Shown here: one piece after another, positions 228 through 58,162 of the stretch
Numbering within the stretch: the first letter of the stretch is position 1
Layout of the letters: each line of letters starts with the position of its first letter
NCBI GenBank assembly: GCA_964510025.1
Contig: CAZDZV010000006.1
Span: 11,143-75,142, forward strand
From: an uncultured Methanosarcinales archaeon
GTDB lineage: Archaea; Nanobdellota; Nanobdellia; Woesearchaeales; DATDXC01
Length of the DNA stretch: 64,000 nucleotides
Direction of reading: 5' to 3'
The notes under the pieces: generated by a model
Seen by the model: the letters and a program-made list of their open reading frames with translations, nothing else
Databases searched by the model: none
Told to the model about the DNA's origin: nothing
Made by a program: the position numbers and the translations under genes

Positions 228-2774
228 ATGAACAAACTAGCTTTGATAAGTTTATTCTGTGTTATAGTCCTTGTGACTGGTGTTTATGGAATTGGCTATC
301 CTGTTCGTGGTAAAGTTAATGATGCCATTGATTGCGCAGATGGGGGGGCCAGAAGAGTGATACATGTTTACGTAACAGGGGATCCAGATAACTACGACAC
401 ATGTTACACCACGTCATATTTAGACAATAATAATTACGAATGTGATACTGAAAATATACCTGGGCATACTGTCGAAATTGGAAGCAGTATCACGGTTGAG
501 GTTATAGACAAAGGGGATGGTTATTATTCTGAACCTATATCTGTATTAGTTGATACGGTAACAAATGTACCTGATCTGCAACTAATTAAAGAAGGGATAA
601 TAGAACACCCAGATTATCCAACATGCCAGGGAGACACTGATGGTGATTATATAAATCAGGTTAGCGACAACTGTCCTTCTGTTTTCAACTGGGAGCAATA
701 CAATGCAGACAACGATGGCAGCGGCGATGCCTGCGATTGCGACAGCAGCGATGATACTGTTTACCATAACGCTCCTGAAATATGCGATGGCCAGGATAAC
801 CAGTGCGATGGGGATATTGGCTTTGGTGAGGTTGATGAAGGATGCGACGATGATTCAGATGATTATTGCGACCAGGCTATGACCACAGTTGGAACTCCTG
901 CTGTCTGCCCAAACGGTGGCGATGACTGTGATGATACAAATTCAGCTGTTAATCCAGGGGCATCAGAATCATGCAATGGATTAGATGACAATTGCGATGA
1001 TGTTATTGATGAAGGAGGAGATGCTCTTTGCAATCCTGGAGAGACCTGCACTGGTGAAGATGGCTGTATTGCTTCATCTTTCACATTATCATGGGAAGTT
1101 GTATTTGAGTCTACTTTGTTAACATATACAGATAGCTTCAATGCTGGTGTCGGTACAGGAGCATCAGATGGGTATGGTTCTGAAGATATCCTTCAGCCGC
1201 CTCCAAGCCCCAGTGGGATTGAGATGAAAACCATTGTGGATCTGGTGGCTCTGACAAAAGACTACAGACTAGATGATTCTGCAACGAAAATCTGGGAGAT
1301 AAAGTTGAAAGCGCAGGACCAGACAGGGGTCGGGTTTACTGGAAAGAATACGATATCCTGGTTCTTAGCTGATATACCTGATGATGTCAGACTTCTGATG
1401 ATAGACTACGGGACTGACAGTGCAAAGACCAATGTTGTAAATACTATTGACCTAAAGGTTGATCCTGACAACAAATATAGATTTGAGGTTTCAGGGGCAG
1501 ATGGGACCTATAGGTATCTGGAACTGATAGCAAGGCAGGTATCACCATCTGACAATATCGCTTACTATCCCTTTGACTCTGATTTCCTGGATGCTTCAGG
1601 AAACTTCCATGACGGAATTTCTCATGGGGACATCCAGTTTATCCCGGGGGTGATTAATGATGCAGCACTGTTCGATGGAGATGGAGATTACCTTGATATA
1701 GGCCTTTTTGTGCCCACTGACTCATTTAGCGTATCAGCCTGGGTAAAGAAAGCTGCTACCGCAAACGAGGACCAGGCCATCTTTGGCTATGGCACAGACG
1801 ATTATTTTGGTTACATGGGATTGATGAATATAGACCACAGCGGCTATAAGATGCCTTGGGGATCCATGTATACGACTGAAAGCCTGGATGACCAGTGGAC
1901 TTTCGTCACATGGGTAAGGGAGAGCACAGATAATCATTTCAGGGTTTATGTAGACGGTGAGATTTTTGCGCATATATATGGTACATGGACAGGATTGCTT
2001 CTGCCGCCTGCAAATAATACGCAATCAATAGGGGTCTCGCTAAACCATGCAAGCCCTATGGCAGACACATATTTCAGCGGCTATCTTGATGAGCTAAGAT
2101 TCTACGACAGGGTTCTGACAGAGCAGGAGATAGTAAATATGTGCAATGCAGACCAGGCAGCATCTGGCATTATCCCGGCAGACCAATGCTATAATATGAT
2201 GCCGCTTTCATCAGGATGGAATCTTGTTTCTATGCCGATCGTACCAACTGAATTCAACAAAGACAGGGAGATTTCCCTAAAGCAGGGCTGGAATCTTTTT
2301 GGGCATGTTTCCAAGGCTCCATTCTATTGGCTTGATGCAAAGATACGAAAAGCAGGGGAGACAAAAACAATAGAAGAAGCGCATTCAGATGTGTGGGTCC
2401 AGTCTACTATATACCATTTTGACCCTGGACAACAGGTCTATACCTTTGTGCCTGGAGACACTGACTACCTGGAGCCAAGCAAAGGCTACTGGCTGTATGC
2501 GTTCGAAGATGATCTGACCCTGATACTGGAAAACGCAGGTGGAGCAGCTATGGAAAACGACTTCTTGTGGACAGACGCTGAAATAAGCGATGGAACAGAG
2601 ACAAAAACACTTGAAGAGGCAAACCAGGCCGGATGGCTGCAATCGACAGTCTATTATTATGACGCAGAAGAGCAGGTTTACAAATTCGTGCCTGGAGACG
2701 ATGACTACACTTATCCATGGAAAGGCTACTGGATCTACTGCAACATAGATGACCTGACCCTGACTATCAGCTAA
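228..2774 (+). CDS. Secreted surface protein with Cys/Asp-rich repeats and a LamG (concanavalin A-like lectin) domain; two C-terminal ~75-aa tandem repeats
   Basis: N-terminal signal peptide (MNKLALISLFCVIVLVTGVYG). Repeated CDxxDxxNPGAxExCNGxDDNCD modules resemble the putative metal-binding Cys repeat family. Central DGDGDYLDIG ... FSVSAWVK ... YLDELRFYDRVLT is typical of a LamG/pentraxin-like fold. C-terminal repeats KTIEEAHSDVWVQSTIYHFDPGQQVYTFVPGDTDY and KTLEEANQAGWLQSTVYYYDAEEQVYKFVPGDDDY. Confidence 0.5.
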   Translation: MNKLALISLFCVIVLVTGVYGIGYPVRGKVNDAIDCADGGARRVIHVYVTGDPDNYDTCYTTSYLDNNNYECDTENIPGHTVEIGSSITVEVIDKGDGYYSEPISVLVDTVTNVPDLQLIKEGIIEHPDYPTCQGDTDGDYINQVSDNCPSVFNWEQYNADNDGSGDACDCDSSDDTVYHNAPEICDGQDNQCDGDIGFGEVDEGCDDDSDDYCDQAMTTVGTPAVCPNGGDDCDDTNSAVNPGASESCNGLDDNCDDVIDEGGDALCNPGETCTGEDGCIASSFTLSWEVVFESTLLTYTDSFNAGVGTGASDGYGSEDILQPPPSPSGIEMKTIVDLVALTKDYRLDDSATKIWEIKLKAQDQTGVGFTGKNTISWFLADIPDDVRLLMIDYGTDSAKTNVVNTIDLKVDPDNKYRFEVSGADGTYRYLELIARQVSPSDNIAYYPFDSDFLDASGNFHDGISHGDIQFIPGVINDAALFDGDGDYLDIGLFVPTDSFSVSAWVKKAATANEDQAIFGYGTDDYFGYMGLMNIDHSGYKMPWGSMYTTESLDDQWTFVTWVRESTDNHFRVYVDGEIFAHIYGTWTGLLLPPANNTQSIGVSLNHASPMADTYFSGYLDELRFYDRVLTEQEIVNMCNADQAASGIIPADQCYNMMPLSSGWNLVSMPIVPTEFNKDREISLKQGWNLFGHVSKAPFYWLDAKIRKAGETKTIEEAHSDVWVQSTIYHFDPGQQVYTFVPGDTDYLEPSKGYWLYAFEDDLTLILENAGGAAMENDFLWTDAEISDGTETKTLEEANQAGWLQSTVYYYDAEEQVYKFVPGDDDYTYPWKGYWIYCNIDDLTLTIS

Positions 2775-4134
2775 ACATTATTTTTTTCTTGTTTCTTTGC
2801 GTCATTATGCATAGTAATATTAGTATGAATACCAGAACTGACAGTGCTACCAAAGCAATGTCTTTTGCGGACTTTTTTTGCGATTGGAGTATTATCTCCT
2901 GCATAATCTCTTCCTCGGTGATTCCGCTGATAGCAACATTTTCTAGATTATAGCCTTCTGCTTTAAAGTACACAAATTTTTCATCTTCATCGACCTTAAT
3001 GGTATTTAGCTTTTCCCACTGGTTTGTTTTCTGAATCCTGTTGTATAGGTATACGTCGTTTTCAGTGAGTTGATTGGTTTGCAGCCATGTTTTCTCCACC
3101 TTAAAGGTAAACACCACTTTCTCAACATCATCATCATCCATATTTCTTTTGACTATCTCAAACTGGCTATATGCTATGCCAGGTGGTTCGCTTGCAGCGA
3201 AAGCCGGTAGCACGCTTTTCACAGCCATGCCTACATTCTTGACTTTCTTTTTCGTAAAGATGGAGATGCTTTCTATAGCCATGCCATCCAGTACAACATT
3301 GACCGGCTTATCAGGGGTAATCTCCTGGTATCTGATCTTTTTCTGAATGATCTCCACAGGTGCTACCGCAACTGGCTGATCGGCGGTGGGAGCAGCGCTT
3401 CCTGCCCCGCCACCGCCGCCTCCGCCGCTGCATACCCCGCAATCCTGGGGGCAAGTCGAGCATGTTTCATCCGGACTGCAAGTCCCATCACCGCAGTCAG
3501 AGACAGCATCGACAGTAAAATAGGCATAGTTTGTCCTTACATTGTTTTCTGAATCATTTGCATAGATCTGGATTAGATATTCGCCATCCGCCAGGTCTTC
3601 GATATTTATTTCGCTGAAATTGCATTCCCTGCATAAGGTGATATTTGCTCCGCCATCAAAGCTATACCAGATTGTATCATTGTAATCCCTTATGGTTGTT
3701 GCATTCACCACAACAGAATCCTCGTCATAAGCTGTAGTTGACGGCGCATCGATTGAGACGATTGCCAGCAATTGCATTACCGGAGCTACGTTATAGGCAC
3801 CATAATCAGTAGTTAAGCTCACAGAATTAGATACATAGTTACCTTCATTATCCACCATCTTTGCATGCAAAATATCACCAGCATTCCAATCATAACTAGG
3901 TATCAAATCAGGATCGCAACAGTAAACATTGTCCCATGCATTTACAATACAGGAATCATTATTCGGTTCAGTATTCTCTGTGTAGATTACTACCTCTCTC
4001 CAAGCTGGTTCAGTTCCATCATAGGCGTTGCTGATTTCCCCACAGATTAAGGGAGCCCCAATAGCATTTATGCTCAGTAAAAAAAATACGGATATGTACA
4101 GTAGCACAAATTTATTCTTGTTGCCAGTTAACAT
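2767..4134 (-). CDS. Secreted cell-surface protein with Gly-rich linker and C-terminal TM anchor plus Lys-rich tail
   Basis: Signal peptide, many N-x-S/T sequons, Cys-rich stretch CGDGTCSPDETCSTCPQDCGVCSGGGGGGGAG, C-terminal hydrophobic helix IALVALSVLVFILILLCIM followed by QRNKKK. The 3' end overlaps the 3' end of the convergent gene by 8 nt. Confidence 0.45.
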   Translation of the reverse strand: MLTGNKNKFVLLYISVFFLLSINAIGAPLICGEISNAYDGTEPAWREVVIYTENTEPNNDSCIVNAWDNVYCCDPDLIPSYDWNAGDILHAKMVDNEGNYVSNSVSLTTDYGAYNVAPVMQLLAIVSIDAPSTTAYDEDSVVVNATTIRDYNDTIWYSFDGGANITLCRECNFSEINIEDLADGEYLIQIYANDSENNVRTNYAYFTVDAVSDCGDGTCSPDETCSTCPQDCGVCSGGGGGGGAGSAAPTADQPVAVAPVEIIQKKIRYQEITPDKPVNVVLDGMAIESISIFTKKKVKNVGMAVKSVLPAFAASEPPGIAYSQFEIVKRNMDDDDVEKVVFTFKVEKTWLQTNQLTENDVYLYNRIQKTNQWEKLNTIKVDEDEKFVYFKAEGYNLENVAISGITEEEIMQEIILQSQKKSAKDIALVALSVLVFILILLCIMTQRNKKKIMFS

Positions 4135-5581
4135 CGTCTGTTATGAATACACTATATGCTTCCTCCAAAGCTATTTCAAAATTTCCAATCTTAAAGGGCC
4201 CAATGTCAATAGAGCCATCCCATTCTTGTGTTGTTGCATCCCAGCGATTTACACTATTACTGGTTGGGATGCTGTCCATCAAATCATGAGCATCAGTATA
4301 AGTTGTATTACCATACAATGATACAAAATGTCTACCATTATGTTTGTTTTTATCTTCCACATAATTCATCGATATACTTTGGTTTTCAATGAGGCTGCCC
4401 GCCCAGCTCCACTCCATTGATATAGGGCTATCTGTCTTAAGATATACATATACAGCTGATGCTGTCTTATTGATATTAAAATTGCACGGTTCTGCACTGC
4501 AAAAAGCTGGAGGGGGGCAAGAGAATTCTGTACAAACCCAGTAATCTACTGTCGGATCTTCCGGTTGATAAATATAGAATCTCACACTATCAAACTCCTG
4601 AGAAAGCTCTAGCAAATCTTCAGCATCACTTATATATGATGCATTGAGATAAAGACCTAGATAATTCTTGGCAGAATCACCACTTTTCCTCGCAAACGTA
4701 AAATTCTGCTTTCCGACTATGTCAATTGTCTTGTTCAGGCCTCTGTCATTGACAGCAAAAACCCTGTAGTACACTCTTCTGTTCTGCAGCGCTGCTGCAT
4801 CCAGGAATGATTCTTCACCAACACCTATCGTAACGCAGTTGCTCCATCCAGACTGCAGGGAGGTTGTATTGCATATCATAATGTCCTTTGTGTAGTTAGT
4901 GTCGGCAACATCCCATGTCAAGGTGACACCCTCAGCTTCATCGAGGCTTATGTTGAGCCCCATAGGACCCAAAGGATACTTGCTGTAATTAACATCAACA
5001 TAGCTTGAGTTAACTGCTGTGCCGTTATCAGTGCCGTCGAAGGCCACAGCTTCGCATGTCCAGTTTGCCCCTATTGTGACATTTCCGTCCAATATGAGGC
5101 TGATGTTGTCAAACTCAGGCTTATGGGTGCCGTTTACGAACCATTTATAATAATACGAGAGATTATCATAGTTATCGTCAGAGCCGGTTGCAGTGCAGTT
5201 CAGATCGCTCGTCTCGTTTGGATTGGCGGGAAGAACCTCTACAGTCAGCACAGCTGGTGCTGTGTTGTCGACGCTCACATTCGCAAATGTGCTCAGGCTG
5301 TAATACCCTGTCAGGCTTGGGGCACCTAGATAGGTCAAGATTCCTGTTATGCTTAATATGACTGTTATCATGCTTATCGTCAGAAGAATATTTGTTTTTT
5401 CAAGCCTTCTTTGTTCAAGCTGCCTTATCTCTGACGTTATCTGCCTGACGCGGGCCTCGTAGCCCTCTATCCTCTCAGCATAATAACGCTTCAGCTCCCC
5501 ATCGACCATTGACCTATACCTGTCGGCAAGATGGATATAGCCTACAAGCTCTGCTCTTTTCTTCCTAAGTCTGTCGATCAT
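4112..5581 (-). CDS. Type II-like membrane protein with large sequon-rich extracellular domain (putative S-layer/surface glycoprotein)
   Basis: Charged N-terminal cytoplasmic segment with coiled-coil character, one TM helix (ILLTISMITVILSITGILTYL), then ~400 aa with >15 N-x-S/T sequons (NVSV, NETSD, NCTAT, NLSYYY, NGTHK, NVTIG, NWTC, NGTAV, NSSY). Confidence 0.4.
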   Translation of the reverse strand: MIDRLRKKRAELVGYIHLADRYRSMVDGELKRYYAERIEGYEARVRQITSEIRQLEQRRLEKTNILLTISMITVILSITGILTYLGAPSLTGYYSLSTFANVSVDNTAPAVLTVEVLPANPNETSDLNCTATGSDDNYDNLSYYYKWFVNGTHKPEFDNISLILDGNVTIGANWTCEAVAFDGTDNGTAVNSSYVDVNYSKYPLGPMGLNISLDEAEGVTLTWDVADTNYTKDIMICNTTSLQSGWSNCVTIGVGEESFLDAAALQNRRVYYRVFAVNDRGLNKTIDIVGKQNFTFARKSGDSAKNYLGLYLNASYISDAEDLLELSQEFDSVRFYIYQPEDPTVDYWVCTEFSCPPPAFCSAEPCNFNINKTASAVYVYLKTDSPISMEWSWAGSLIENQSISMNYVEDKNKHNGRHFVSLYGNTTYTDAHDLMDSIPTSNSVNRWDATTQEWDGSIDIGPFKIGNFEIALEEAYSVFITDDVNWQQE

Positions 5582-6036
5582 TTTGTTCTGTTGTATACTG
5601 TCCAGATTGTCTTTTCATTTCTGTGCAGCAACTCCCCTATATCATGATAGCTGATTTCGAAATTATCCTTGATAAAAACAACAATTGCGCCTAGCAGGCT
5701 TGATCCTGATTTCAAAGCGTCAAAAGGGATGTCATACTTTGAATAGCTGTAGCTGTAGCTTCTTGGATACTTTCTCTTAGAGTTCCTGTAAGCAAGCCAG
5801 CAAGAAGAAACCTCTTTATCCAGCAAACCCGCTATCTCCTTAAAAGACTTGTCCATATTCTCCCGCAGAAACTTAACAACTGTCTCAAGTGGGCTTAGCT
5901 TATCATTGAAGATAGAAACAGGCAATTTGTCTTCACCTTCCAGCAAGCCAAAAACCTCTTCAGCGCTAAGGTCATACTTAGCCCTAAACCTGTCAAACCT
6001 TTCCTGCAATTGCACTAAATCAGTTTCCTGAATCAT
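5578..6036 (-). CDS. Small putative DNA-binding protein with two HTH-like segments
   Basis: 152-aa ORF 4-nt coupled to the downstream gene. Segments LSPLETVVKFLRENMDKSFKEIAGLLDK and ISYHDIGELLHRNEKTIWTVYNR resemble sigma-70 region-4/HTH motifs. Sits immediately next to the repeat array. Confidence 0.3.
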   Translation of the reverse strand: MIQETDLVQLQERFDRFRAKYDLSAEEVFGLLEGEDKLPVSIFNDKLSPLETVVKFLRENMDKSFKEIAGLLDKEVSSCWLAYRNSKRKYPRSYSYSYSKYDIPFDALKSGSSLLGAIVVFIKDNFEISYHDIGELLHRNEKTIWTVYNRTK

Positions 6037-6290
6037 ATAAATAAGTATTAAAATTATATTTGTAAGTATATAAATCTTTTTATTTTATATTTGTAAGTTT
6101 CATTAAAATTTAAGTAAGTATTATCTTTTTATTTGTAAGTAATTTTATATATTTATAAGTATTTAATTTTATAAATAAGCAATAAAACAATATTTGTAAG
6201 CTTATATATTATATAAATAAGTAATTAATAAATATTTAAAAGTATAAATTTATATTAATAAGTAATAAATATTTATTTGTAAGAACTATT
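6037..6290. repeat. AT-rich iteron-like array: 5 exact TTTGTAAG copies plus ~6 degenerate (A/T)TAAGTA copies in ~250 bp
   Basis: Exact TTTGTAAG at 6058, 6090, 6132, 6193, 6275. Variants ATAAGTA/TTATAAGT at ~6041, 6113, 6163, 6217, 6259. Spacing 30-80 bp. Intergenic between two minus-strand genes. Essentially no G+C. Confidence 0.6.
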
Positions 6291-7362
6291 TCTTGACAGG
6301 TTTCATATCTTTTGTCTTTTCCTTGTCAGGCTTGTCATCCTTCTTCTCTTTATCGTTCTTCTCTTCTTTTTTCTCTGATTTGACTTCAGCTGAAGCTTCA
6401 GCTGGCTTGCCTTCCAGATGCTTATTGAGGTATTCCTGAAGCTTTAGTCCCTGTGCAAACAAGGGATTGTCCTTGAGCAGATCTTCAAAGGCCTTTGACA
6501 TTATCTCTGCTTTCTCTATCTTAAATTCAAACTCGCCCCTTAGCTTGCCTTCCATCTCCTTGAACCTGTCTGCAAGCTTCCTGAAATATTCCTCAACCTC
6601 GGCAAGTACCTTCTTAACCTTCTTATCGTGTTTCTCTATCTTCTCTATCTTTGTCTCAAACTCCTTCTTCTTCAGGAATGTGCCGGAAGAGACCTCCAGC
6701 TTATCCACCTTGGCAGTAAGCTCCTTAAGCTCGCCTTTGAGGCTTTCAAGCTTGTCTGCAAATGTGTTAAACGCTTCAAAGCTTTTCTGCGCTTCTATGA
6801 AAACATTGTCCACCCTGTCAGCATGCCTCTCTACCTCGGCAGTTATCTTCTTCACGGTCATTATCTCTGTCTTGACCTCCTCATTGAGCTTTATGACCTG
6901 CTCTATGCCCCTGAAAACATTTACCTGGTCCCTTATTTTCCTCAGCTGGTCCATTATGTTCTTCATCATCTCTTCTTTAGCTTCCAGAATTCCCCGTAAC
7001 CCTTCTATCTTTCCATCCTCTTTCTGGACCTGGATCATCAGCTTGTCTGGATGCACGCTCTCTACCAGGTCAGCTGCCTTTGTGGCCTTAACCTCGATCA
7101 TTCCGACTGTCCTTTGAGTATCATTAATCTGCCCCCTTATCTCCCCTATCTGTTCGTTCATGGTGGCAAACCTTTCGCCTGTAGATTTCCTCATCTCTTT
7201 CAGGCTTTCCAGGGTGCCGTTTATCTTCGTAAGGTCTGCCTGGATCATCTCTACTTTCTGAGAAACATTCGCATCTGCAGGAATCTCTTTGTTCTCCTCT
7301 TCCTCTTCGTCATCAGATTCCTCTTCTTGCTTCTTTTTTTTCTTTTTAAAAGGCCACATCAC
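6286..7362 (-). CDS. Long coiled-coil protein with polylysine/acidic N-terminus and K/E/D-rich C-terminal tail
   Basis: MMWPFKKKKKKQEEESDDEEEEENKE... Heptad-rich, highly charged throughout (KLEVSSGTFLKKKEFETKIEKIEKHDKK...). C-terminus KSEKKEEKNDKEKKDDKPDKEKTKDMKPVKK. No catalytic motif recognised. Confidence 0.4.
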   Translation of the reverse strand: MMWPFKKKKKKQEEESDDEEEEENKEIPADANVSQKVEMIQADLTKINGTLESLKEMRKSTGERFATMNEQIGEIRGQINDTQRTVGMIEVKATKAADLVESVHPDKLMIQVQKEDGKIEGLRGILEAKEEMMKNIMDQLRKIRDQVNVFRGIEQVIKLNEEVKTEIMTVKKITAEVERHADRVDNVFIEAQKSFEAFNTFADKLESLKGELKELTAKVDKLEVSSGTFLKKKEFETKIEKIEKHDKKVKKVLAEVEEYFRKLADRFKEMEGKLRGEFEFKIEKAEIMSKAFEDLLKDNPLFAQGLKLQEYLNKHLEGKPAEASAEVKSEKKEEKNDKEKKDDKPDKEKTKDMKPVKK

Positions 7363-48018: not shown

Positions 48019-48657
48019 TTATTTCGTTATAATGACAGTATCACTTTCATTGATCTTTAGGTATTTTCTAAGATTAACAGGCGAGATTATCTCAATAATA
48101 TCCTCGCCATGCCTGGTTCTTTCAGGAACAACTATAGCTGCTTGTTTCCCCCCTAGCTTTATCTTGTAGCATTTCAATGAACCGAATGTCCTCTCTTTTG
48201 TTTTAAACCCTGATATTTTTATTTCTTCTAGGTCAGATAAAAACAACAAAAGCGATTCCTTGTCTATCTTGACATTTAGTGTGCCTGGATAGGCCTCAAA
48301 CCCGAGTCTGCTGTTGAACTGCCTCTGATAATTTAATTGGGATACATAATATGACCCTTCTCCTATTCCTGATTTCACAGAACCTTCTAAAGAATCTTTA
48401 GCATCAAATAATTTTCTTATCCTGCAATAGTGTTCTTTTAAGAAGCTCCTGCCTTTTTCATCAATATTTAATACAACACCACTTGTAGATGCTAGCCGTC
48501 TTATGAGCCCAGACTGCTCCATTTCCCGCAATTTTCTGCTTATGGACTGTTGGGATAAACCAAATTTTTTGGCTAACTTAATAGTGGATGTTTCAAACTT
48601 GCCAAAAAATCCGCCTTTTTTCGCGATATGGACTAGTAGCTCCAGATATTCATACAT
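48019..48657 (-). CDS. ribK: CTP-dependent riboflavin kinase with N-terminal wHTH (RbkR-like)
   Basis: N-terminal LELLVHIAKKGG ... LAKKFGLSQQSISRKLREMEQSGLI (HTH). C-terminal GFEAYPGTLNVKI ... PERTRHGEDIIEIISP (archaeal RibK). Confidence 0.65.
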   Translation of the reverse strand: MYEYLELLVHIAKKGGFFGKFETSTIKLAKKFGLSQQSISRKLREMEQSGLIRRLASTSGVVLNIDEKGRSFLKEHYCRIRKLFDAKDSLEGSVKSGIGEGSYYVSQLNYQRQFNSRLGFEAYPGTLNVKIDKESLLLFLSDLEEIKISGFKTKERTFGSLKCYKIKLGGKQAAIVVPERTRHGEDIIEIISPVNLRKYLKINESDTVIITK

Positions 48658-48762
48658 ATCTTATAGGAATAAGTAGATACTTATAAATTTTATGATACTT
48701 ATAGATGAGTAATTAAAGATAAACAAAAAATATTATAAAACAAGCTGCAACATTGATCATAG

Positions 48763-49944
48763 ATGCAAAAAAAGCTGCTTATTGTTGGCATTGATCCTGG
48801 CACTACTCTAGCCTATGCAGCTATCGATACAGCGGGTAATCTGGTCAGAGTATTCTCAAAAAAAAATATTGATCTTAGCACCCTGATTGCTCACCTGATT
48901 GGTTTGGGCAAGCCGCTGGTTATTACCGGAGATAAAGAGCATACGCCGGAATTTGTGCAAAAGGTGGCTGTGAAGGTTGGTGCGAAGGTAGTGTCCCCAA
49001 GCTACGATCTCAAGGTAGAAGAGAAAAGGAGACTGGTAAAGGAATATGATACTAACAACCAGCATGAGATTGATGCCCTTGCATCTGCCTTCTTTGCTCT
49101 TAACAAGGTAAGCCCGTTGCTAAAAAAGATAGATATCTTCGTGAAACACTATGGCAAAGAGAAGATAAGGAACGAGCTTATAGAATTTGTGGTCGGAAAA
49201 GAGCTTAATATAAAAGATGCGGCCGATATCATCGAAGAGCCTGAAAAAGAGGAAGTGAAGATAATTAAGGATGTTGTTGATGAGAAAAAGTTGTCTGAAA
49301 AAGACTTCCTCCAGCTATACAGGAAATATAAGGATGCACTAGAAGATATTGAATTGCTGAGAAATCAGAATAACAAGCTAAGGGACAGGCTGAAACAGAT
49401 AAAGAAGGACTATACATATATGTTTCAGAAAGCCACAAGATCTCAGTTGGATGATAAGTTGCAGTCCTTATTGACCTTCAAGGAAAGAAGACTAAAGGTC
49501 TATGACAGCCAGATCAGGCAAAAGGAGAACGGAATAAAGGAAATGCAGGATGAGATAACTACCTTGATCTATTTCTTATCAAATGTAGGTTCAAATATCC
49601 TGTTGAAGAAATTAGACAATTTAGGTACCAAGGAATTTCAGAAAAAGGAGGAGATTCTGAATATATCCGAAGGTGATGTCCTGCTGGTTAAAGACCCGGA
49701 CATAATAAGCGACAGCGTGGTTGACAAAATAAGAGATAAGGTAAACTATATATTCTATAAGAAAAAGGTCAGTAGGAAAATAAAGGAAAAGCTGCCTTTT
49801 GTTTTTATTGACTCGGGGAAAATCAGGATCGAGGAAAACAGTTATTTTGCTATCACCGACAAAGACAGGTTTAATGCGCTAAAAGGCGATCAGGACCTGA
49901 TAAAGGATATTGTCAACAACTATCAGAAAAGCAGAAAAGTCTAA
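48763..49944 (+). CDS. DUF460 archaeal protein (RNase H-like fold)
   Basis: LLIVGIDPGTTLAYAAIDTAGNLV ... LVITGDKEHTPEFV N-terminal block characteristic of DUF460, plus a long coiled-coil C-terminus. Confidence 0.5.
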   Translation: MQKKLLIVGIDPGTTLAYAAIDTAGNLVRVFSKKNIDLSTLIAHLIGLGKPLVITGDKEHTPEFVQKVAVKVGAKVVSPSYDLKVEEKRRLVKEYDTNNQHEIDALASAFFALNKVSPLLKKIDIFVKHYGKEKIRNELIEFVVGKELNIKDAADIIEEPEKEEVKIIKDVVDEKKLSEKDFLQLYRKYKDALEDIELLRNQNNKLRDRLKQIKKDYTYMFQKATRSQLDDKLQSLLTFKERRLKVYDSQIRQKENGIKEMQDEITTLIYFLSNVGSNILLKKLDNLGTKEFQKKEEILNISEGDVLLVKDPDIISDSVVDKIRDKVNYIFYKKKVSRKIKEKLPFVFIDSGKIRIEENSYFAITDKDRFNALKGDQDLIKDIVNNYQKSRKV

Positions 49945-51813: not shown

Positions 51814-52036
51814 TTTTAAGTGATGACTGCCCTACAAACCTAGAATTCTGCAATTTTAGGCTTTAATGCGTCTTTCATGCAAGACATGAATAACGACTCT
51901 GTGCTTCTCTTTGATCGGCCCACATCGGCTTTCTATTTTCATTGAGCCCATTTTATTTATATATAGGCAAGATAATGCTTTGATAATATATAAAAGCTGT
52001 GTTTATTTTGGGGAATTTGTGAGTCGACAAATCCCT

Positions 52037-52966
52037 CTAAATTATGATGTCTTTTAGGATTCCTTGTTTTACTAATTCGATATTTATCAAGTAATCATTA
52101 TGCAGAAAAGTTTCAAATAATGATTTCTTTGTTGTTTTCCATCCAAGACCATCGGTAATCCAAATTAAGTCGATTCCTTGTTTTCTTAAGAAGTCTGATA
52201 AGTACTGATATTCACCAGCTGTTGACTTTAATTTTGACCCACCGCCACTATAATAATTGGTTTCAATTACAAAAATCTTATTTTTTGATTTCTCAAATAC
52301 TGCAAAATCAAATATTCGATTGGTTTTATCAAGTTCAATATCAAAATTCCATTTCTCCTTGATCTTTTTTTGTGTTGCTTGCGGAATGTAGTCCAAGTTA
52401 TTTTTCTCTGAGAATTTCAGTATTATCTTCTCAACAATGCTCTCCATTGATTGACCTGTACGGTTTTTTCTTGCATTTGTATCCATTCCTACTTCGACAC
52501 CAAAGCAATAGTCAACAATATTCTTAACATTTTTATCTTTGAATATACTTTTTAATCCCGATTCCTTAAAGAAAATTAGTATGTCTTCTCTTATATCTGA
52601 AGTAAGCTCAACATCAGGATTAAATAATTCCAGTTTACTACCAGACTTTAGCTCTTCAAAATCATCAATGATGTTTACTGCCTTTAATTTGCTTTTTCTG
52701 ATAGCAATGAGAATTGGAAGAACCTTTCTTACATTTGGATATTCAGTAATAAGTTCAATGAATTCTTTTTCTATATCGCTTTTTCCAATTAACACATTAA
52801 GAAGATTTAGCTCTTTTTCAATTAAGTGAGTGTTATTCTTAACTTTCTCAAAATCAACAAAATAATCCCATGTAAATATGGAATCTGTCAAAGTTTGTAC
52901 AAGATAGTCAAATATCCCTTTCTCATCTTTTAGGTTTAATTTTTCATATGTTTGTAAGTATTTCAT
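52037..52966 (-). CDS. Putative type II restriction endonuclease (DpnII/MboI-like by context)
   Basis: 309 aa, 10 bp downstream of a Dam-class MTase in an operon with two MTases, the dpnM-dpnA-dpnB-like arrangement. Family assignment is contextual, not motif-based. Confidence 0.45.
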   Translation of the reverse strand: MKYLQTYEKLNLKDEKGIFDYLVQTLTDSIFTWDYFVDFEKVKNNTHLIEKELNLLNVLIGKSDIEKEFIELITEYPNVRKVLPILIAIRKSKLKAVNIIDDFEELKSGSKLELFNPDVELTSDIREDILIFFKESGLKSIFKDKNVKNIVDYCFGVEVGMDTNARKNRTGQSMESIVEKIILKFSEKNNLDYIPQATQKKIKEKWNFDIELDKTNRIFDFAVFEKSKNKIFVIETNYYSGGGSKLKSTAGEYQYLSDFLRKQGIDLIWITDGLGWKTTKKSLFETFLHNDYLINIELVKQGILKDIII

Positions 52967-52975
52967 TTCTTCACC

Positions 52976-53809
52976 TTAATAGTTTGTAACGACAACTTCA
53001 TTTATCTTTCCCCTTTTGTCCCCATTACAATTGATCATTCTTGTTGCCTGAACAAAATGGATTTCATAATTAGGATATAATTCTTTAATAAATTTTGTAT
53101 CGCTATTGCTTAACATCACAAGGCAACCATTATCATCCAGTTTTTTGAATACTTCAGCAAGCTGTTTCTGCTCTTCTTCTAAAAATGTGTCTTTTGTGTA
53201 GGTTGTAAAACTCTTTCCTTTTTTAAGTGGATAATAAGGAGGATCAAAATAAATAAAGTCTCCTTTATTTGCTAGATTAACAACCTTTTCGAAAGACATT
53301 ACTTTAATCGTAACATTTTTCAATAATTCTGAAACTAGTCTTAATCTATCTTCTTGGACAATATCTGGATTTTTGTAGGAACCCATCGGAACGTTGAATT
53401 TTCCCTTTGAGTTTACTCTATATAGTCCATTGAAGCAAGTCTTATTTAAATAAATGAATCGTGCTGCTCTTTCAAGAGAAGGTAATTCTTTTGGATTTGT
53501 TGCACGAATTGTTAAATAATATTTTTTGCCTTCAACCATATGATATTCCTTATGCTGTTTTAATTCAATTATTAATCTCTCTACATCACCCCTTATGGTT
53601 TCGTAAGCATTGATTAATTCTTCATTTATGTCTGAAATAATAATTTCAGAAGGATTAAACTTTTGAATTATATAGAAGAAAACTGCTCCGCTACCAACAA
53701 AAGGCTCTAAATAGCGATTAAACTTCTTTGGAAATAATGGCTCAAACTGTTCTAAAAGTTGACCTTTACCGCCTGCCCATTTAACAAATTTGGGGATTTG
53801 GATATTCAT
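52976..53809 (-). CDS. Dam-class (alpha) N6-adenine DNA methyltransferase
   Basis: KWAGGKGQLL (motif X), EPFVGSGAVFF (motif I), IYFDPPYY (motif IV), in alpha order. Confidence 0.85.
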   Translation of the reverse strand: MNIQIPKFVKWAGGKGQLLEQFEPLFPKKFNRYLEPFVGSGAVFFYIIQKFNPSEIIISDINEELINAYETIRGDVERLIIELKQHKEYHMVEGKKYYLTIRATNPKELPSLERAARFIYLNKTCFNGLYRVNSKGKFNVPMGSYKNPDIVQEDRLRLVSELLKNVTIKVMSFEKVVNLANKGDFIYFDPPYYPLKKGKSFTTYTKDTFLEEEQKQLAEVFKKLDDNGCLVMLSNSDTKFIKELYPNYEIHFVQATRMINCNGDKRGKINEVVVTNY

Positions 53810-55563
53810 TTTTTATTCTCCACCAATTCAGAAACAAATACTTTTAAATTGTCTGTTACCAAATAACTTTTTTCTAATAATTTTTCACATATCATCTTAC
53901 AAATATACTTTTTCAACCCTTCATCACAGAAATTAATCACTTCTTTATCTGAATTTTTACTTTTTATCTTTTCAGTTGCAAAATTCAAAATTTCACTATT
54001 ATTATATGCCTGATTTGTTCTTTCCTTAAATTCATCATAAGCCATAATAGTATAGTGGTTTCTTTTATCTTTTAAAAATTCATTAATTGTTTCTAAAATT
54101 AATTTTGGTTCAAAAATATCTTCAATCTCAAAATTAGCTACATTATTTTCATAATTATCAAAACGCTTAACATATTTACATTCTACACTAAAACAGTTAT
54201 ATGTTTTTGACTTTATTTGTTGAAATATACTTTTTCCAGCTGTATCAAAATCAAAAAGTGCGATAATTTTTGGCTTAAAAGATAGATTATTGCAAAACAA
54301 TTCTAGAAATTGTAGGTAACCTTTATATTTATCAACCCCTCCTGCAACAAGAATATTAGGTTTGATAATTTTTAGTTGTTCAAATAATGCAAATAAATAA
54401 TCTTTATCTTCCTGTCCTTCCACCAATAGATTGAAAGGCAAGATCTCCCAAGAATCATTCTTAGAAATTCCTAGGTGCTCTTTGACCATGTACACTTTTT
54501 CAATACCTGCAGCATTATTTATTCTTGTATTTACTTCATAGAATTTCTCGTCTTTTTTCCTGATGTATTCTTTTAATTGTATATCTGCTTCTAGCAAAAC
54601 TACTTCTTCCACTTTCTCAAGCCGTATAAAATTTGGAGAATGTGTATTAATAATGGTTTGATATTTTTTTGAAAGTTGAAACAAGATATCACTTACCCTT
54701 TTCTGAAGTGATGGTTGAAGAAATGCTTCTGGCTCGTCAAACCCCCAGATAATCTCTTTTCCAGTTTTATCAGATATATATTCGATTAAAGAGTATAAAA
54801 CAATTCTCTGAATTCCGCTCCCTTTTGTTTCAATTTTGTTTGAATTGCTATCAATCAGAGTAAAATCAATTAAATCAGATAAAACTTCTCGTAAGTTAAT
54901 GTATTTTGGGAATAGAATTTCTGCCCTCCATAATGAATTATCTATCCCATTAATTCCATTTGTATATTTTTTGATATTTTCAGTAAGTTCTTTTTTTATT
55001 TCTACTAATGCCTTTTCAGATTCTTCAATAAAAGTATTCAAATGTTCCATTGGTTTTGTTTTTCTTTTTCTCAGATTATCCAGGGGAGTTAATAATTCAT
55101 TACTAACAAACCTTGCAATCTCTTTAGAAGTGTCAATATTACTAGCTTCGACCATAATAAATTGATATTTATTTAGAACATTTTTACAATCTTTATCGCT
55201 CATTAGGGTTTCTTGTTTACCTTTTACTTTTATTTTGCCCTCTATCGTTAATGATTTGATTCCCTTTTTCTGCTCTTTATATGTTGTAGAAATAGTAATT
55301 CTATCTTGATTTTTATTAACAAATTCAGCTGTGATTTTTGTTCTGAATCCTGCTCCTCTTTTTCCATAGTAGATATGATGAGGAATATCCTCGTTAGCAT
55401 TAAATTTATTTTCGTCTAACGAGAAGAACAAATTTATAGCTCGTAATACATTTGTTTTACCAACATTATTTGAACCACAAATGATTTTATAGTTATCATT
55501 AGAGAAATCAATCTTTAACTTACTTATTGATCTGTAATTACTTATACTTATTTTCTTTAACAT
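53806..55563 (-). CDS. OLD-family ATP-dependent nuclease: ABC-type ATPase (AAA_15/21-like) fused to C-terminal Toprim
   Basis: Walker A ICGSNNVGKTNVLRAI, Walker B/D-loop IIWGFDEPEAFLQPS, Toprim glutamate LLVEGQEDKDYL and DxD LFDFDTAGKS. 4-nt overlap with the Dam gene start. Confidence 0.75.
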   Translation of the reverse strand: MLKKISISNYRSISKLKIDFSNDNYKIICGSNNVGKTNVLRAINLFFSLDENKFNANEDIPHHIYYGKRGAGFRTKITAEFVNKNQDRITISTTYKEQKKGIKSLTIEGKIKVKGKQETLMSDKDCKNVLNKYQFIMVEASNIDTSKEIARFVSNELLTPLDNLRKRKTKPMEHLNTFIEESEKALVEIKKELTENIKKYTNGINGIDNSLWRAEILFPKYINLREVLSDLIDFTLIDSNSNKIETKGSGIQRIVLYSLIEYISDKTGKEIIWGFDEPEAFLQPSLQKRVSDILFQLSKKYQTIINTHSPNFIRLEKVEEVVLLEADIQLKEYIRKKDEKFYEVNTRINNAAGIEKVYMVKEHLGISKNDSWEILPFNLLVEGQEDKDYLFALFEQLKIIKPNILVAGGVDKYKGYLQFLELFCNNLSFKPKIIALFDFDTAGKSIFQQIKSKTYNCFSVECKYVKRFDNYENNVANFEIEDIFEPKLILETINEFLKDKRNHYTIMAYDEFKERTNQAYNNSEILNFATEKIKSKNSDKEVINFCDEGLKKYICKMICEKLLEKSYLVTDNLKVFVSELVENKK

Positions 55564-55579
55564 TATTTCCCCAGTATAG

Positions 55580-56365
55580 TCAAATAAGCTTATTCTTTAT
55601 AGAGTTTATCCTTTTTATTGTGGTTTTTAAAAAATTCTCCTCTTTATCAATACCTATAAATTGTCGATTAAGCATACTTGATACAACCCCTGTAGTACCA
55701 GATCCATTAAATGGATCTAGTACAACGGCATTTTCTTTTGTTGAAGATGCGATAATTCTTCTCAATAATTCTATTGGCTTTTGAGTGGGATGCTTTCCAT
55801 GAGTCTTTTCGCTCATTGGAGTTAACGGAATATGCCAAATGCTCCTCATTTGTTTACCTTTTGGAGCAATATTATCATCCCATTCCCTCATTAAATCATA
55901 ATTAAAAACATGAGGAATCTTCCCATCTTTTCTTGCCCATAAAACAGTTTCATGTGCATGAGCAAAATACCTGCAGCTTAAATTTGGTGGTGCATTAGGT
56001 TTAAACCATGCAATTTCATTTAATAATTTGAAATTGAGCTTTTGTAACGCATATCCTACTTGGTATATATTATGCATTGTCCCAGAAATCCAAATAGTAC
56101 CATTATCTTTTAATACCTTACGACATGCATTTATCCATTCATAAGTGAATTTGAAATCTTTGTCTATTCCATTAGATTTATCCCAGTCTGCTTTATTAAC
56201 TGAGACCATTTTACCAGCCCTGCAAGAGATCCCTCCGTTAGATAGGAAATAAGGTGGATCTGCAAAAACCATATCAACAGATTTTTCAGGTAATGTGTTT
56301 AGAATACTAATACAATCATTATGGAAAAGTTGCACAGTTTCAGACTTGTAATAGGGTTTAATCAT
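55580..56365 (-). CDS. Beta-class N6-adenine/N4-cytosine DNA methyltransferase (DpnA-like)
   Basis: VFADPPYFLSNGG (motif IV) near the N-terminus and DPFNGSGTTG (motif I) near the C-terminus, the beta-class order. Confidence 0.8.
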   Translation of the reverse strand: MIKPYYKSETVQLFHNDCISILNTLPEKSVDMVFADPPYFLSNGGISCRAGKMVSVNKADWDKSNGIDKDFKFTYEWINACRKVLKDNGTIWISGTMHNIYQVGYALQKLNFKLLNEIAWFKPNAPPNLSCRYFAHAHETVLWARKDGKIPHVFNYDLMREWDDNIAPKGKQMRSIWHIPLTPMSEKTHGKHPTQKPIELLRRIIASSTKENAVVLDPFNGSGTTGVVSSMLNRQFIGIDKEENFLKTTIKRINSIKNKLI

Positions 56366-56495
56366 TTATAAATCTAATAAAGTCCTTTATTATAAACTTT
56401 GTTATTAAACTTTCGAAATATTACTATTTTCTTTGCAATGAGCCGTCTCATCGCCCCCTCTCTTCGCAGATCCTTCTATATACAATGCAAGCCTT

Positions 56496-57113
56496 ATGTA
56501 TTACATACTCCGAACGTTGCTTATAAACGATGGGAGCCTTAAATTAGGTGGTGATAAAATGACCTTGGAATATAAGCGTGAACCTCTAGAAGAGGATGAA
56601 GTGTTGGCTTTAAGGAGAGCATCTACTTTCTTTGAAGAAGAATTAGTTATAAACTGTCTGTTAGATACTGGCATGAGAGTATCAGAGCTTGCCAACCTAA
56701 GAGAAGAAAATATCTCCTGGCAAAGAAACTGTATCAGCTTGATAGGAAAAGGTAATAAGCGTAGGGTGATCCCAATGAGTAAAAGAGTAAGGCTACTCCT
56801 ATTAGACTGTTTTTCTCACAATAATACCAAATTTCCATTAGCCATGCGAACAATCCAAAAATATGTTAAAATCGTGGCAGACAAGGCAAGGATAAGAAAA
56901 ACTGTAAGCCCTCACGTGCTAAGACACACATTTGCAGTAACCTATCTTCACAGAGGAGGCAATTTAAGGGCATTACAGGCTATTCTAGGGCATAGTTCCA
57001 TAACAACTACTGATATTTACCTCAACTACTCAGGGAAGCGAGTTATTGATGATTTTCAAAGAATATGGAATGAGCCAGATACAAATAACAAGTTATTGAC
57101 GGGGTATTTTTAA
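56496..57113 (+). CDS. Short tyrosine recombinase (catalytic domain only)
   Basis: TGMRVSEL (Arg), HVLRHTFAVTYL (HxxR), GHSSITTTDIYLNY (catalytic Tyr). The likely true start is the internal ATG near 56559 (MTLEYK...). Confidence 0.7.
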   Translation: MYYILRTLLINDGSLKLGGDKMTLEYKREPLEEDEVLALRRASTFFEEELVINCLLDTGMRVSELANLREENISWQRNCISLIGKGNKRRVIPMSKRVRLLLLDCFSHNNTKFPLAMRTIQKYVKIVADKARIRKTVSPHVLRHTFAVTYLHRGGNLRALQAILGHSSITTTDIYLNYSGKRVIDDFQRIWNEPDTNNKLLTGYF

Positions 57114-57115
57114 AA

Positions 57116-58162
57116 ATGGCAAAAAACATCTTCTTTTTTATTATTAAGCATGGAGCTTTGCTTGGCATAGCATTTCCATTTATATTATCCATAAAAATAA
57201 GCACATCTCCTTTTGGTTTGGTACATTTAGTGTTAACCCTAATTATTTTGGAATACTATGCTTATTCCATACACCAGTTTTTATTTGATTTTCAGGATAA
57301 AAGAAGAAAGTTAAGAATAAAAAAATTTGAAGAGTCTAAACTGATTGATAAATTCCTAAATGCTAAATTAGATTACTCTAAATCTTCAGAACTATTAGAG
57401 TTAATTTCTATTATAAAGAATACAGAATTCTTGCCAAAATTAAAAGAAATGTATAATCAGAAAATCGAAGAAAAAATGATTTATGCTGAAAGACTACTTG
57501 AGAAATTACAGCACCAAGAAGAAATACAAGAACTTGAGCTGAAGAAAAGTCAACTTAATAACAACATTCAATATCTAATAAAGCAAGAAAAGGAGATGAC
57601 TCAAACAGAAGAAGAAAGGAAGGAAGATCTAAAGGGGGAGATGAATCTTGAAGAAAATAAGGTGTTTGAAGAGTCAGATCTTACTGATGAAAAAGCAAAT
57701 TTTCTTCTGGAAGAAGGATACGAACAAACCAATCAATATTCAATTATGGAAGAAGGAAATATCTCGGTTTATATCAAACCCGTACTTAATCATTCAAAAT
57801 CACATATGTTTTTGGTTTACGAATTAAAGCAGATTTTGGAACATTGGTATGAAGCTGAAAACATAGAAGAGCATCTAACAAAGGATGCAGACCTTACTTT
57901 CAAGTATAACAAGAAAATCTACGCTCTGGAAGTTGAGACAGGAACATTGCTGAAAAAGAAAGACCAAGCTAGAGATAAAGTAGAATATCTAAATAGGAAA
58001 TATCAAAACAGATGGATGTTCATAGTAACAAATAGAAACCAAGTGGCTAAATACAAGAAATTAGGAATAGTCAGTGAGAGAAAGCAGGTGACAAAAAATC
58101 TTGATAAGATGCTAAAACTCCGCACCCCCCTAGATCGGGTGTCTGAGGAATTTCCCGACTAA
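57116..58162 (+). CDS. Membrane-anchored coiled-coil protein with C-terminal PD-(D/E)xK/Hjc-like motif
   Basis: Two N-terminal TM helices, a ~150-aa coiled coil, then HMFLVYELKQ...DADLTFKYNKKIYALEVETGTLLKKK...RWMFIVTNRN, which fits a D...(E/D)xE...K restriction-endonuclease-like core. 3 nt after the integrase stop. Confidence 0.3.
   Translation: MAKNIFFFIIKHGALLGIAFPFILSIKISTSPFGLVHLVLTLIILEYYAYSIHQFLFDFQDKRRKLRIKKFEESKLIDKFLNAKLDYSKSSELLELISIIKNTEFLPKLKEMYNQKIEEKMIYAERLLEKLQHQEEIQELELKKSQLNNNIQYLIKQEKEMTQTEEERKEDLKGEMNLEENKVFEESDLTDEKANFLLEEGYEQTNQYSIMEEGNISVYIKPVLNHSKSHMFLVYELKQILEHWYEAENIEEHLTKDADLTFKYNKKIYALEVETGTLLKKKDQARDKVEYLNRKYQNRWMFIVTNRNQVAKYKKLGIVSERKQVTKNLDKMLKLRTPLDRVSEEFPD

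Follow-up and report, generated by a model that had tools for sequence, protein, structure and literature searches.

What is the role of a short intergenic region in which one word recurs a dozen times? The question arises in a 64-kb stretch of DNA from an uncultured archaeon (contig CAZDZV010000006.1; hereafter the window), where a spacer at positions 6037-6290 separates two minus-strand genes, the downstream one encoding a small protein with two helix-turn-helix (HTH) domains. The original prediction for this spacer preferred an autoregulatory operator array to a replication origin or iterons, and this preference is supported by our analysis: the core TACTTAC(A) recurs upstream of homologous HTH genes in unrelated contexts. 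We put at about 65% the probability that the spacer controls a three-gene operon, which encodes the double-HTH regulator and two surface proteins, and that its 12 direct repeats are operator sites for the operon's own regulator.

The spacer holds 12 direct repeats in helical phase

The spacer is 254 bp long and contains 111 A, 118 T, 18 G and 7 C (9.8% G+C; 90% A+T); its description as a GC-free segment of about 250 bp thus stands as regards the high AT content but is only approximate as regards the absence of G and C. As predicted, it lies between two co-directional minus-strand open reading frames (ORFs), at 6286-7362 upstream and 5578-6036 downstream. All 18 plus-strand G residues fall within motif copies. 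Read on the gene (minus) strand, these copies form an array of 12 same-strand units with the consensus tACTTAYwwATA:

6036-6285, minus strand: whole array of 12 direct units, running from the upstream gene's stop codon (6286-6288), which it abuts, to the A of the HTH gene's ATG (6036)
6274-6285, minus strand: unit 1, most distal, TTCTTACAAATA
6253-6264, minus strand: unit 2, TACTTATTAATA
6233-6244, minus strand: unit 3, degenerate, TACTTTTAAATA, the lowest-scoring unit (13.0 bits)
6212-6223, minus strand: unit 4, TACTTATTTATA
6191-6202, minus strand: unit 5, AGCTTACAAATA
6170-6181, minus strand: unit 6, TGCTTATTTATA
6150-6161, minus strand: unit 7, TACTTATAAATA
6130-6141, minus strand: unit 8, TACTTACAAATA
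6109-6120, minus strand: unit 9, TACTTACTTAAA, with a second, overlapping CTTA 4 nt downstream
6088-6099, minus strand: unit 10, AACTTACAAATA, followed by the sole 31-bp (three-turn) interval
6057-6068, minus strand: unit 11, TACTTACAAATA, with its C at -30 from the ATG, directly downstream of a candidate TATA box
6036-6047, minus strand: unit 12, most proximal, TACTTATTTATA, with its C at -9 and its last base forming the A of the start codon

Five exact copies of TTTGTAAG are located on the plus strand of the spacer (6059, 6090, 6132, 6193 and 6276), the number originally given, and WTAAGTA also has five exact copies. With the degenerate copies, of which roughly six had been proposed, the exact ones make up one array of 12 units. 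Their reported separation of 30-80 bp proved incorrect. The AAG anchors of the units (plus strand: 6043, 6064, 6095, 6116, 6137, 6157, 6177, 6198, 6219, 6240, 6260 and 6281) are spaced, in order, by 21, 31, 21, 21, 20, 20, 21, 21, 21, 20 and 21 bp; ten of the 11 spacings are thus 20-21 bp, and the remaining one is exactly one turn longer. An extra, overlapping AAG copy at 6112 lies beyond these 12 anchors, and the spacer is strongly strand-biased, with AAG occurring 13 times on the plus strand compared to three occurrences of CTT. Within the units, information content is concentrated at positions -2 to +4 and +7 to +9 relative to the C, while the other ~9 bp do not rise above the local A/T background. 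All 12 units have kept C-T-T, and 11 of them A-T-A at +7 to +9. Tandem Repeats Finder detects a 41-bp period with 72% matches over the distal half (6149-6283), corresponding to pairs of units. A strict alternation of two unit types was considered and found to be only partial, the order from distal to proximal being C T t T C T T C C C C T.

The frequency of the motif far exceeds what the local composition yields. In 2000 dinucleotide-preserving shuffles of the spacer, TTTGTAAG occurs on average 0.02 times (maximum 2) compared to the 5 copies observed, and TAAG, present 12 times, averages 3.0 (maximum 9) in spacer shuffles of the same type. The whole window contains 11 copies of TTTGTAAG versus 3.4 expected, and the six that lie outside the spacer are all inside ORFs. 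The word is therefore not common in intergenic DNA elsewhere within the window, and within these 64 kb of the genome the motif is clustered only at this spacer. The 12 anchors fit a 10.35-bp period with a Rayleigh R of 0.975, a value reached by none of 20,000 random placements of 12 sites. We base the significance of the phasing on this fixed-count placement test; comparing the maximum Rayleigh R over 15-30 bp with that of shuffles is uninformative, as the shuffles contain fewer sites. The fit implies that every copy lies on the same face of B-DNA, two turns from the next except for a single interval of three turns.

A position matrix derived from the units gives the same picture. Its 11 best matches in the window are 11 of the spacer units, and 12 of the 14 best lie in the spacer, with unit 3 ranking 14th. 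A general promoter element was also considered and rejected, because the motif is missing from the window's other promoters and the top match outside the spacer is coding. That match (52947-52964, minus strand, GAAATACTTACAAACATA, 14.8 bits) covers the first codons of the ORF at 52037-52966 in a low-GC island and is probably due to chance. The divergent intergenic region at 48657-48763 contains three ATAAGTA/TACTTAT words in mixed orientation and a weak matrix match (48674-48691, 12.7 bits); these may represent one weak site for the same regulator, or the region may simply be promoter DNA rich in A and T.

The motif recurs upstream of homologous genes

We collected 83 loci with homologues of the HTH gene and, with the window excluded, analysed 300 bp of upstream sequence for each of 58 non-redundant homologue instances. 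TACTTAC occurs in sense orientation at 1.59 per kb upstream of the homologues versus 0.07 per kb elsewhere in the loci, an approximately 23-fold enrichment. In the same regions, ACTTACAT is found 25 times in sense and 0 times in antisense orientation, and CTTACA 43 times compared to 9 (binomial p=1e-6). The CTTAC/CTTAT core also emerges, in 13 of 24 upstream regions, when repeated 10-mers are searched for without bias. The consensus for the family is TACTTACATA, with 3′ flanks that are lineage-specific and at times palindromic (e.g., TACTTACATAGTAAGTA in locus L013).

The geometry of the array recurs along with its core, which typically appears as a pair of copies 21 bp apart close to the promoter and the start codon. 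At the other loci the commonest copy spacing is 20-21 bp (10 of 29 intervals), and the proximal pair is placed as follows, with positions of the C given relative to the ATG and identities relative to the window protein:

Window: -30 and -9, 21 bp apart
L038: -30 and -9, exactly 21 bp apart (40% identity)
L083: -28 and -7, exactly 21 bp apart (48% identity)
L081: -39 and -18, exactly 21 bp apart (56% identity)
L003 and L024: -45 and -24, exactly 21 bp apart (34% and 32% identity, respectively)
L003, second paralogue: copies 21 bp apart upstream

Longer series also exist, with four copies 20-21 bp apart in L030 and eight copies spaced by 21, 21, 30, 21, 21 and 51 bp in L004. Most homologues carry just 2-4 copies, and the window array is the longest and best-phased among the 59 non-redundant instances. 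In two relatives, about four nearly identical tandem repeats are present, of 72 bp in L004 (2630-2860) and of 79 bp in L005 (about 2690-2946). Each of these repeats carries TACTTAC/TACTTAT, which indicates that these control regions expand by tandem duplication.

The upstream neighbor gene varies between homologue loci while the motif recurs, so the motif travels with the HTH gene. In nearly all loci, by comparison, the product of the downstream gene is a surface protein, either secreted or anchored in the membrane, and these proteins belong to at least four unrelated classes. A conserved anti-regulator partner was considered and rejected on account of this diversity. The N-terminus of the 489-aa protein encoded next in the window, moreover, does not resemble in sequence its topological counterpart in a giant fused protein of the family.

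The adjacent gene encodes a tandem sigma-4-like HTH protein

The gene that follows the array encodes the presumed cognate binder:

5578-6036, minus strand: gene for a 152-aa tandem sigma-region-4-like HTH protein, whose stop codon overlaps the start of the next gene (ATGA)

An AlphaFold2 model computed with nine homologues is confident (predicted local distance difference test score 87, predicted template modelling score 0.71) and has a helical hairpin at the N-terminus with two tri-helical HTH domains after it, confirming the double-HTH assignment. In Foldseek searches against the PDB, each HTH domain superposes on region 4 of extracytoplasmic function (ECF) sigma factors with a root-mean-square deviation of 0.6-1.3 Å over 42-48 residues. 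The region-4 matches, among them 2h27, 1rio, 3vep and 8jzt, include chains solved on -35 DNA; E-values are weak (0.6-1.5, or 0.6-1.1 for these four entries), and no PDB structure found by Foldseek matches the whole chain well. In sequence searches, no family in Pfam or NCBIfam scores above threshold: Pfam Sigma70_r4_2 remains below its cutoff (17.8 versus 25.7 bits), the NCBIfam models SigX4 and SigJ match weakly and over region 4 only, and a sequence-profile search of the PDB returns marginal matches only. With these sub-threshold region-4 matches alone, Pfam and NCBIfam provide no sigma-2 domain. They likewise provide no match to an Lrp-type HTH or RAM domain, and an alpha-beta RAM domain is missing from the model.

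The protein is a member of a large family: clustered at 50% identity, its profile-search matches number 2214 at E<=1e-3 and 1974 at E<=1e-10. Its carriers are metagenome-assembled genomes of Woesearchaeota and Nanoarchaeota together with some Third Party Annotation bins labelled otherwise, often with several copies per genome, and no relatives were found in viral contigs. The best-conserved segment is the second recognition helix, RNEKTIWT. We found no description of this HTH family in the literature.

A common variant of about 320-370 aa (P0010, P0011 and many others) contains two full modules and hence four HTH domains per polypeptide. This hints that the single-module window protein acts at least as a dimer, which would fit a pair of sites 21 bp apart. 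There are also giant relatives of 1,704-5,919 aa (e.g., P0015, P0023, P0025, P0031 and P0034), in which two tandem modules occupy the extreme C-terminus, after a short hydrophobic segment and a Lys/Arg cluster. The module is not free-standing at L008, L010-L012, L034, L041, L042, L049, L055, L056, L060-L062, L064 and L076. The architecture of the giant fusions suggests a surface protein with a membrane-tethered cytoplasmic DNA-binding tail and, more generally, a function of the module that is coupled to surface proteins. The TACTTAC motif was not seen just downstream of the giant fused genes.

A model for regulation of the operon

The HTH gene is followed by two surface-protein genes, which makes the spacer the upstream region of a three-gene operon:

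6067-6074, minus strand: candidate TATA box TTTATATA, a consensus word, at -38 to -31 from the HTH gene's ATG
4112-5581, minus strand: second operon gene, encoding a 489-aa protein that has a cytoplasmic coiled coil at its N-terminus, a single transmembrane helix and an extracellular domain
2767-4134, minus strand: third operon gene, encoding a secreted 455-aa protein that has a PGF-pre-PGF domain and is anchored to the membrane at its C-terminus

At the window's other first genes, the TATA-like 8-mer is positioned about -30 to -23 from the ATG, implying leaderless mRNAs. Upstream of the HTH gene, units 11 and 12, with their C at -30 and -9, fall between TTTATATA and the ATG, in a spacer that contains several TATA-like words. 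From this arrangement we infer the promoter position, the transcription start and the sign of regulation. The 152-aa protein is the putative binder of the array.

According to our model, each unit would offer a 12-bp contact surface (tACTTAY..ATA) on the same side of the helix at two-turn intervals. Such same-face units at two-turn pitch would allow proteins to bind head-to-tail and cooperatively along ~250 bp. Each molecule would bind through its two sigma-4-like HTH domains, and the N-terminal helical hairpin could mediate self-association. Units 11 and 12 would lie in the stretch from the candidate TATA box to the start of an mRNA that is leaderless or nearly so, where their occupancy would block recruitment of TFB and RNA polymerase and result in negative autoregulation. 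Interference with this recruitment is the usual mode of action of archaeal repressors. With the ten upstream units, local occupancy and cooperativity would increase, producing a steep, switch-like response. Activation from the upstream sites instead of repression may also occur.

Several observations weigh against this interpretation. At least one sense CTTAC[AT] is present within 300 bp upstream in just 20 of the 58 homologue instances; many of the motif-less instances are not first in their operon or are fused to giant proteins. The distance between the proximal copy and the ATG ranges from 7 to 47 nt and more, so that the position relative to the promoter is not uniform, and outside the 20-21-bp pairs the helical phasing at other loci is modest (R=0.445). 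Paralogues in one genome have the core motif in common, and another family member could be the binder. The candidate TATA box of the window also lies 8 nt farther from the ATG than is usual there, and the promoter assignment is uncertain because the spacer contains several other TATA-like words.

Alternative explanations for the array

The proximal pair at -30 and -9 could be the entire functional operator, with the ten upstream units being minisatellite leftovers of a duplicated 21/42-bp operator unit that have no role of their own. The 41-bp period in the distal half of the spacer, the presence of just 2-4 copies in most homologues and the obviously recent, motif-bearing duplications of 72 bp in L004 and 79 bp in L005 speak for such a history. 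Neutral decay, however, should erode cores and phase in the same manner as flanks, whereas here the flanks have drifted to background while C-T-T is kept in 12 of 12 units and A-T-A in 11 of 12, and ten of 11 intervals are held at 20-21 bp with the other exactly one turn longer. We therefore judge this explanation unlikely, although of the rivals it is the one that we would dismiss least readily. It is quite improbable that the motif is bound by another factor, either a family paralogue or a global regulator of surface-protein operons, with the HTH gene merely the first of the regulated genes. This would account for a core (TACTTACA) that is identical upstream of two paralogues in one genome (L003) and unchanged across proteins just 34-56% identical, in a large family that is often multi-copy. 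Against another binder stand the restriction of the motif cluster to this one spacer within 64 kb, the correspondence between the most conserved protein segment, RNEKTIWT in the second recognition helix, and an invariant DNA core, and the lack of any other candidate regulator linked to the motif.

Stacked core promoters, formed by TATA-like units, or intrinsically bent DNA might raise transcription without a dedicated protein. The TACTTATTTATA-type units do embed a consensus TATA word, and the spacer combines 90% A+T with strict helical-repeat phasing, but the invariant C, T and T lie outside the consensus of the TATA box and the B recognition element, the motif occurs without an adjacent TATA-like word in L007 and in the -30 copy of L038, and it is absent from other promoters of the window. 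Transcripts from distal units would, moreover, have long AT-rich leaders, and we consider this explanation very improbable. Least credible of all is an origin iteron array or a centromere-like partition site, despite the resemblance of ~21-bp helical-phase direct repeats in very AT-rich DNA to plasmid iterons and parC-type centromeres. No Rep, Orc1/Cdc6, ParA, ParM or TubZ gene is adjacent to the spacer or among the ORFs scanned; the absence of Orc1/Cdc6, which had been noted originally, holds for all window ORFs of 340-470 aa. Pfam and NCBIfam yield no Rep-family match for the flanking genes, and the fold of the adjacent protein is sigma-4-like. A partition NTPase is likewise not adjacent; the neighbors are a coiled-coil protein, with weak coiled-coil-type matches in the same libraries, and surface proteins. 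All 12 units are co-oriented, unlike origin recognition box elements flanking an unwinding region, and the only inverted repeats detected are AT matches of low complexity. The motif clusters upstream of several paralogues per genome, always beside surface-protein genes, and the family has no relatives in viral contigs. The window itself is chromosomal, since it carries aIF5B, Trm1 and RtcA. Cumulative GC skew has a broad minimum at 7-16 kb that tracks gene orientation, in a window too short to decide the position of an origin.

Two further kinds of element were tried for the spacer and rejected. Rfam at gathering thresholds and ARAGORN found no structured RNA in the whole window, and the spacer transcript folds worse than shuffles (z=+1.49). 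A small protein is no better a candidate, as the sole spacer ORF of at least 20 aa is a 26-aa TTG ORF.

Chromosomal context

The upstream neighbor (6286-7362, minus strand) encodes a 358-aa coiled-coil protein with Lys/Glu-rich tails, for which only weak coiled-coil-type matches (BLOC1_2, SMC-like) were obtained; it is not conserved beside the HTH gene at other loci. The window also carries a PUA protein, an Mre11-like phosphoesterase, HerA and a ~30-kb glycosyltransferase cluster. The latter (17000-46000, plus strand) comprises ~30 co-oriented genes rich in GT4-family glycosyltransferases, along with a protein containing a Wzy-like O-antigen ligase domain and an ABC exporter. It has the appearance of a large locus for surface-glycan biosynthesis, and it explains why the GC skew is steadily positive here. 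At 52000-58000, a low-GC island (28-30% G+C versus about 40% elsewhere) holds a 585-aa AAA_15/AAA_21 (AbiEii-like) ATPase at 53806-55563 and could be a horizontally acquired defence island.

Comparison with known regulatory systems

Archaeal Lrp-type regulators such as Ss-LrpB and Ptr2 bind clusters of sites phased at two- or three-turn spacing, with cooperative binding and a dual, positive and negative, autoregulation that depends on concentration (PMC2995911). The array resembles these systems in placing multiple imperfect sites upstream of the regulator's own gene, on one DNA face and two or three turns apart (PMC2995911), and they are its closest functional counterpart. Lrp boxes, however, are ~15-bp palindromes, typically two or three in number, that are bound by dimers of an HTH and RAM protein, whereas the present locus has 12 direct-repeat half-sites and a tandem sigma-4-like HTH protein without a RAM domain.

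Plasmid iterons bound by Rep initiators of the RepE, pi and TrfA class are ~21-22-bp direct repeats in helical phase, encoded alongside a two-domain DNA-binding monomer whose adjacent gene is autoregulated. Our array shares with them the ~21-bp phased direct repeats and the adjacent gene for a two-domain DNA-binding protein. It differs in being chromosomal, in lacking a Rep-family protein, in the fold of the adjacent protein and in having nothing that points to replication; the family, unlike plasmid Rep, is multi-copy and always linked to surface-protein genes. The superposition of each HTH domain on sigma-4 and the apparent autoregulation of the operon recall ECF sigma factors, and the translational coupling of the gene to a single-pass membrane protein with a cytoplasmic N-terminal domain recalls sigma/anti-sigma operons. 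Here, however, there are two tandem sigma-4-like domains and no sigma-2, the archaeal host uses TBP and TFB, and the membrane partner encoded downstream is not retained throughout the family.

Among two-HTH monomeric regulators (MarA, SoxS and Rob), one polypeptide can cover ~20 bp on one DNA face, while PhoB/OmpR and ToxR bind direct repeats head-to-tail, the mode of binding that direct repeats imply. ToxR is also comparable, as a membrane-tethered form, to the giant-protein fusions of this family, although these have the opposite topology and carry the HTH in a cytoplasmic tail at the C-terminus. The window protein is unrelated, in sequence and by family, to regulators of the MarA, PhoB or ToxR type, and the array here is much longer. 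Cbp1 from Sulfolobus (PDB 2lvs) is likewise an archaeal tandem-HTH protein that binds direct-repeat arrays, in its case CRISPR repeats. It is a weak whole-chain Foldseek match to the window protein (rank 2, E=0.18), and our locus has 12-bp repeats at 21-bp pitch and no CRISPR array.

The architecture is thus of a known kind, that of an autoregulated HTH regulator with an operator array. What is new is the tandem sigma-4-like family, so far encountered in DPANN-type genomes and absent from the curated libraries searched, together with its candidate recognition sequence, an unusually long one-face array of 12 direct repeats and the link to surface proteins.

Implications for DPANN archaea

The giant fusions at other loci and the co-translation of the free module with membrane-anchored surface proteins in the window could be read together in a more far-reaching way. 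The tandem sigma-4-like module might be the DNA-binding output of a DPANN-specific system that connects the cell surface to the chromosome, with the array nucleating a filament that would switch host-attachment proteins or tether the locus to the membrane. A cooperative filament on a 12-site, one-face array would then provide an ultrasensitive on/off switch resembling phase variation. In a bolder version of this proposal, the -30/-9 pair would be a sigma-like promoter-specifying element in an archaeon. We regard such a surface-to-chromosome system as distinctly unlikely.

The operator array that we favor bears on a group of organisms in which transcription regulation is almost unexplored, because they are mostly uncultured and have small genomes with few recognizable regulators. 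For these archaea, the locus offers TACTTAC(A) as a candidate recognition sequence, preferentially arranged in pairs 21 bp apart, and its array, being the longest and best-phased of those compared, is a good substrate for work on binding and cooperativity. The family to which the presumed regulator belongs is consistently linked genetically, and sometimes fused, to surface proteins that are thought to mediate host contact.

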